64,000 nt of DNA from Escherichia coli (GTDB lineage Bacteria; Pseudomonadota; Gammaproteobacteria; Enterobacterales; Enterobacteriaceae). Shown in pieces: positions 26,347 through 26,369 of the stretch. Within the stretch, counting starts at the first letter, position 1. Each line of letters starts with the position of its first letter. The DNA lies in NCBI RefSeq assembly GCF_003018235.1, contig NZ_CP027437.1. The stretch is one strand, 5' to 3'. Both the position numbers and the translations under genes were made by a program. The notes below the pieces were generated by a model that saw nothing but the letters and a program-made list of their open reading frames with translations, had not been told where the DNA came from and did not search any database.

Positions 26347-26369
26347 ACTTTAGTTACAACATCCTTATT
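26347..26369. other. terB: Replication terminator Ter site (TerB position), also the tus autoregulatory operator
   Basis: Reverse complement reads AATAAGGATGTTGTAACTAAAGT with the GTTGTAAC Ter core, 10 bp upstream of the tus start. Confidence 0.8.

Follow-up and report, generated by a model that had tools for sequence, protein, structure and literature searches.

A G7 allele of the replication terminator TerB in the rstB–tus spacer of an Escherichia coli chromosome

In E. coli, TerB is placed within the tus promoter, and Tus autoregulates its synthesis through it (PMC8707476; PMC8347550); a 10 bp region separating tus and TerB is mentioned in PMC8707476. On the Ter site itself, C6 flips into a pocket of Tus and forms the lock (PMC8707476; PMC8347550), and a G–C pair at position 6 is a requirement for this lock (PMC8347550, methods; PMC8707476). 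The adjoining base, position 7, differs between phylogroups of E. coli (Goodall et al., 2021; PMC8347550) and is shaded as variable in a 2023 review (PMC10331603). [quoted passage not shown] The supplement of the same paper contains no TerB 17-mers as text (PMC8347550). A stable lock is formed at TerC, the main site of fork pausing (PMC8707476). The variability of TerB at position 7 is thus already published, and the allele described here implies no new biology. In what follows, binding, lock formation, autoregulation and the tolerance of position 7 are taken from the literature, while sequence, position, orientation and allele frequency were computed.

TerB between rstB and tus

The window is the whole stretch of 64,000 nucleotides from E. 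coli contig NZ_CP027437.1 that was analysed. On its minus strand, positions 26347–26369 read AATAAGGATGTTGTAACTAAAGT, with Ter position 1 at 26369 and position 23 at 26347 (Table 1), which is the TerB 23-mer of NU14 and of other strains. The first-pass annotation had described the reverse complement of this interval as a Ter site with the invariant core, as is read directly from the window, and had located it 10 bp upstream of tus; indeed, 10 nt (26346–26337) separate position 23 from the tus ATG (26336), within a 75-bp rstB–tus spacer. In MG1655 there are also 75 bp from the end of rstB to tus, and this spacer holds AATAAGTATGTTGTAACTAAAGT (locus L001, 1727–1749), likewise 10 nt before tus, which is the K-12 TerB sequence given in the annotation. 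We looked for an exact match to this reference and found none, 22 of the 23 bases being identical, and the G that was suspected to distinguish this strain from K-12 does so, by one base at position 7 (26363). By its sequence, by its place in the rstB–tus spacer and by its orientation, the site is assigned to TerB, and we put at about 95% the probability that it is the chromosomal TerB of E. coli in a natural allele that is common and has G rather than T at position 7.

Table 1. Features of the tus–TerB region (window coordinates; promoter elements are putative).
Feature	Coordinates	Strand	Remarks
fumC	24007..25410	+	
tus, 309 aa + stop	25407..26336	-	start is the ATG at 26336; RefSeq tus annotation under matching DNA
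Spacer from Ter to tus start codon, 10 nt, GGTTAATATT	26337..26346	-	
TerB, 23-bp Tus-binding terminator site	26347..26369	-	1 mismatch vs MG1655 TerB
Ter core positions 8–19, ATGTTGTAACTA, containing GTTGTAAC	26351..26362	-	identical to K-12 TerB and TerC
Ter position 7, G (T in K-12)	26363	-	C on + strand; sole difference within the 23-mer
Ter position 6, G, conserved	26364	-	pairs with C6 on + strand
Putative extended -10 of the tus promoter, TGcTATAAA	26369..26377	-	by eye; last A is Ter position 1
Putative -35, TGGTCA, 4/6 matches	26392..26397	-	by eye; 17-nt spacer to TATAAA
rstB, upstream neighbour	26412..27713	-	stop codon precedes Ter position 1 by 42 nt

The gene context is that of K-12. 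Of 5426 complete E. coli genomes, 5423 were matched by a 243-bp query around the site, and the matching DNA was always annotated as rstB and tus (annotation of both was counted in 5421 genomes). Throughout E. coli, as in other Enterobacterales, Ter keeps its place in front of tus. The GTG at 26348 proposed by the ORF lister as the start of tus was rejected as a mere mechanical upstream extension of the frame.

The Tus protein encoded by the window is identical to K-12 Tus at 301 of 309 residues. The eight changes (I23A, H27E, H116R, K119Q, H126R, E206A, A221T and N224D) all lie away from E49, I79, F140, H144, G149 and R198, which are unchanged and which reportedly have roles in the lock pocket of Tus. 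As judged from the translated gene, a cognate Tus is encoded with its DNA-binding and cytosine-pocket residues intact. Divergence from K-12 is locally high at the 5' end of tus: about 26137–26236 (tus codons about 14–47; K-12 locus L001, 1801–1900) there are 12 mismatches per 100 bp, compared with 0–7 in the other 100-bp bins of the 3-kb rstA–rstB–tus–fumC stretch. This hot spot takes in I23A and H27E, and because of it 3758 genomes show only 90–95% identity to the 243-bp query. A recombination patch could account for it, as could a relaxed or diversifying N-terminal helix.

The window runs in reverse to K-12 coordinates, and the orientation of the site relative to rstB, tus and fumC is the same as in K-12. 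GC skew on the + strand is positive in six of eight bins; therefore the replichore's own fork runs from left to right in the window and reaches position 23, on the permissive face, first. Read in this way, the arrangement is that of the K-12 TerB fork trap, permissive for the resident fork. The mechanism would then follow the known one: Tus, encoded immediately downstream, would bind the 23-bp TerB, and forks arriving from the tus side would pass it. A fork coming from the position-1 side, that is from higher window coordinates, having already crossed the terminus, would meet the non-permissive face and would unwind the DNA as far as the position-6 G–C pair, at which point C6 would flip into the Tus pocket and form the lock. 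As TerB would overlap the -10/+1 region of the tus promoter, bound Tus would also repress its own transcription. TerB with G7 is accordingly predicted to be a normal polar fork barrier and tus operator, in a tus–TerB module that appears standard.

Over the 14 kb from 20000 to 34000, the best identity among the 5426 complete E. coli genomes is 99.1% and only six genomes reach 99%; therefore the terminus region of the source strain is either sparsely represented by close complete genomes or mosaic. In some close relatives, an IS4 insertion lies within this stretch.

Two states of TerB in E. coli

The frequency of the G7 state was determined by an allele census with exact-match 35-nt BLAST queries (Ter with 6 nt on each side) at 100% identity (the band of 99% and above), in the 5423 genomes that have the locus. 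Since the census rests on BLAST identity bands, one or two mismatches at the outermost flanks may be trimmed or hidden, which cannot happen to mismatches inside Ter. Three 35-mer alleles carry G7: that of the window (797 genomes), the same 23-mer AATAAGGATGTTGTAACTAAAGT followed by GATTAA (568 genomes, as in R3, DETEC-S566 and 1437), and an allele beginning ATTAAGG (1256 genomes, as in BL21 and O157:H7). G7 is thus found in at least 2621 of the 5423 genomes (48%). The K-12 35-mer, with T7, is found in 2343 genomes (43%). The remaining 459 genomes (8.5%) fall outside the four alleles, and the examples inspected among them have T7 and another change. TerB of E. coli therefore exists in two states of roughly equal frequency, of which the T7 of K-12 is only one. 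The earlier description of the G as a possible strain variant holds in that it differs from K-12, but the base is not unusual, being present in at least 48% of complete genomes. Caution is warranted when genomes are searched with the exact K-12 23-mer, or when T7 is taken as canonical in the design of Tus–Ter tools.

Both states are also found outside E. coli. In one scan of species-representative genomes, the tus-adjacent Ter has G7 in E. whittamii (AGCAAGG...) and in Escherichia sp. E1V33 (ATAAAGG...), and T7 in E. albertii, Escherichia sp. MOD1-EC7003 and Salmonella enterica subsp. arizonae and diarizonae, as well as in Cedecea, Buttiauxella and Pectobacterium. The presence of G7 and T7 among Escherichia species indicates that both states are old or recurrent within the genus.

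Position 7 and the tus promoter

The change from T7 to G should have little or no functional effect, an expectation based on the work of Coskun-Ari and Hill (1997), as it is cited by Goodall et al., and on the analogy with TerC. The alternative is that G7 is functionally different, altering lock kinetics, promoter strength or the set-point of autorepression and thereby the level of Tus or the efficiency of TerB. Position 7 adjoins G6/C6, the lock base, and it may also be close to the start of the tus transcript. The extended -10 and the -35 listed in Table 1 were recognized by eye, and both TGcTATAAA and TGGTCA are invariant in eight of eight aligned strains. A sigma-70 consensus scan of 26250–26500 reported no promoter, because it requires a T at position 6 of the hexamer and so misses TATAAA. 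If the by-eye promoter is right, with TATAAA at 26374–26369, transcription of tus would start near 26362 and the polymorphic base at 26363 would lie at about -1. That T7 and G7 both persist at high frequency, and in several Escherichia species, would also fit a difference in function. Against it, position 7 is reported to have no base-specific contact and substitutions there to have little effect (PMC8347550), and TerC, which has G7, forms a stable lock (PMC8707476). In addition, T7 and G7 track linked flanking SNPs, as neutral lineage markers would. A further Ter site that presumably carries G7 is TerG. It is described as a strong binder that forms the lock (PMC8707476). A functional difference between the two alleles thus appears improbable. 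The stronger proposal, that T7/G7 is not a neutral lineage marker but a maintained polymorphism, shared by Escherichia species, that adjusts the strength of the tus promoter, the set-point of autorepression or the kinetics of lock formation, is to our mind just as doubtful, the by-eye promoter (start near 26362, position 7 at about -1) being the only basis of such tuning.

Two other features were observed upstream of TerB. On the minus strand at 26410–26415, a C to T change relative to K-12 gives rise to an exact TTGACA, which overlaps the stop codon of rstB (TGA, 26414–26412) and is shared with BL21 and O157:H7. This hexamer is 35 nt upstream of TATAAA, too far for that -10, and there is no -10-like hexamer 16–18 nt downstream of it. 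A terminator-like hairpin with a T-rich tail is found on the minus strand at 26467–26479, inside the 3' end of rstB and upstream of the tus promoter region; its stem of five pairs is weak and it may have arisen by chance.

A common and probably neutral allele is the reading retained, and two other explanations fare worse than a functional difference. A sequencing or assembly error at 26363 that hides a K-12 TerB, for which the single-base difference is the only support, is refuted by the population data and has a negligible probability: the exact 23-mer AATAAGGATGTTGTAACTAAAGT is present in at least 1365 of the 5423 genomes (25%), all independent and complete, 797 of them share the 35-mer, and three genomes are 100% identical to the window over the 243-bp query. 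Finally, a chance Ter-like sequence with no Tus-related role can be dismissed, since, although the window holds no excess of the 8-mer GTTGTAAC alone (three occurrences vs 1.47 expected, by itself not significant), 22 of the 23 bases match K-12 TerB, the K-12 23-mer used as query with up to three mismatches finds 26347–26369 (one mismatch) as its sole match in the window and nothing in 100 dinucleotide-preserving shuffles, and E. coli and other Enterobacterales retain a Ter at this position before tus.

Comparison with described Ter sites

The two other GTTGTAAC cores of the window, both on the + strand and oriented opposite to TerB, were rejected as Ter sites, each departing from the Ter sequence at essential positions. 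The one at 10057 (10048–10070) has C9, C18 and T19 and lies inside a long minus-strand ORF (9817–11613), and the one at 50767 (50758–50780) matches positions 8–17 but has A6, C18 and C19 and lies inside a long minus-strand ORF (50099–51757). They most probably arose by chance or represent pseudo-Ter sequences.

Among Ter sites that are not adjacent to tus (TerA-like; loci L012–L095), many have a run of T followed by a run of A, 3–7 nt downstream of position 23, for example GCGGACTTTTTTAAAA and CGATTTTTTTTAAAAA, in Citrobacter, Enterobacter, Buttiauxella, Klebsiella, Cedecea and Escherichia. The tus-adjacent Ter sites are without this conserved flank, which may represent bent DNA or the tail of a terminator, or may belong to an extended site. 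One of the non-tus sites, in E. coli E69 (CP089930.1; locus L012, 4676–4694), has the 23-mer AATAAGGATGTTGTAACTAAAGT followed by a T-run, so the TerB 23-mer of the window can occur at a second, TerA-like locus.

The closest relatives of the window site are found at the same locus in other E. coli strains. B2 strains such as the uropathogenic NU14 share the 23-mer, NU14 differing only by SNPs further upstream in the spacer, and the ST131-like group (R3, DETEC-S566 and 1437) shares it too, with GATTAA just downstream where the window has GGTTAA. TerB of BL21 and O157:H7 (ATTAAGGATGTTGTAACTAAAGT) is at the same locus and also has G7, but carries in addition an A to T change at position 2, which belongs to the outer bases of the site that are not contacted. 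K-12 TerB shares with the window the locus, the orientation, the 10-nt distance to the tus ATG and all bases but one, including G6 and core positions 8–19; it differs by T7 and by SNPs in the flanking spacer, three of them between Ter and rstB. K-12 TerC (ATATAGGATGTTGTAACTAATAT) shares G7, G6 and core positions 8–19 with the window TerB, but it differs in its locus near dif, in outer bases 1–5 and 20–23 and in having no operator role. TerC shows that a strong natural terminator can carry G7.
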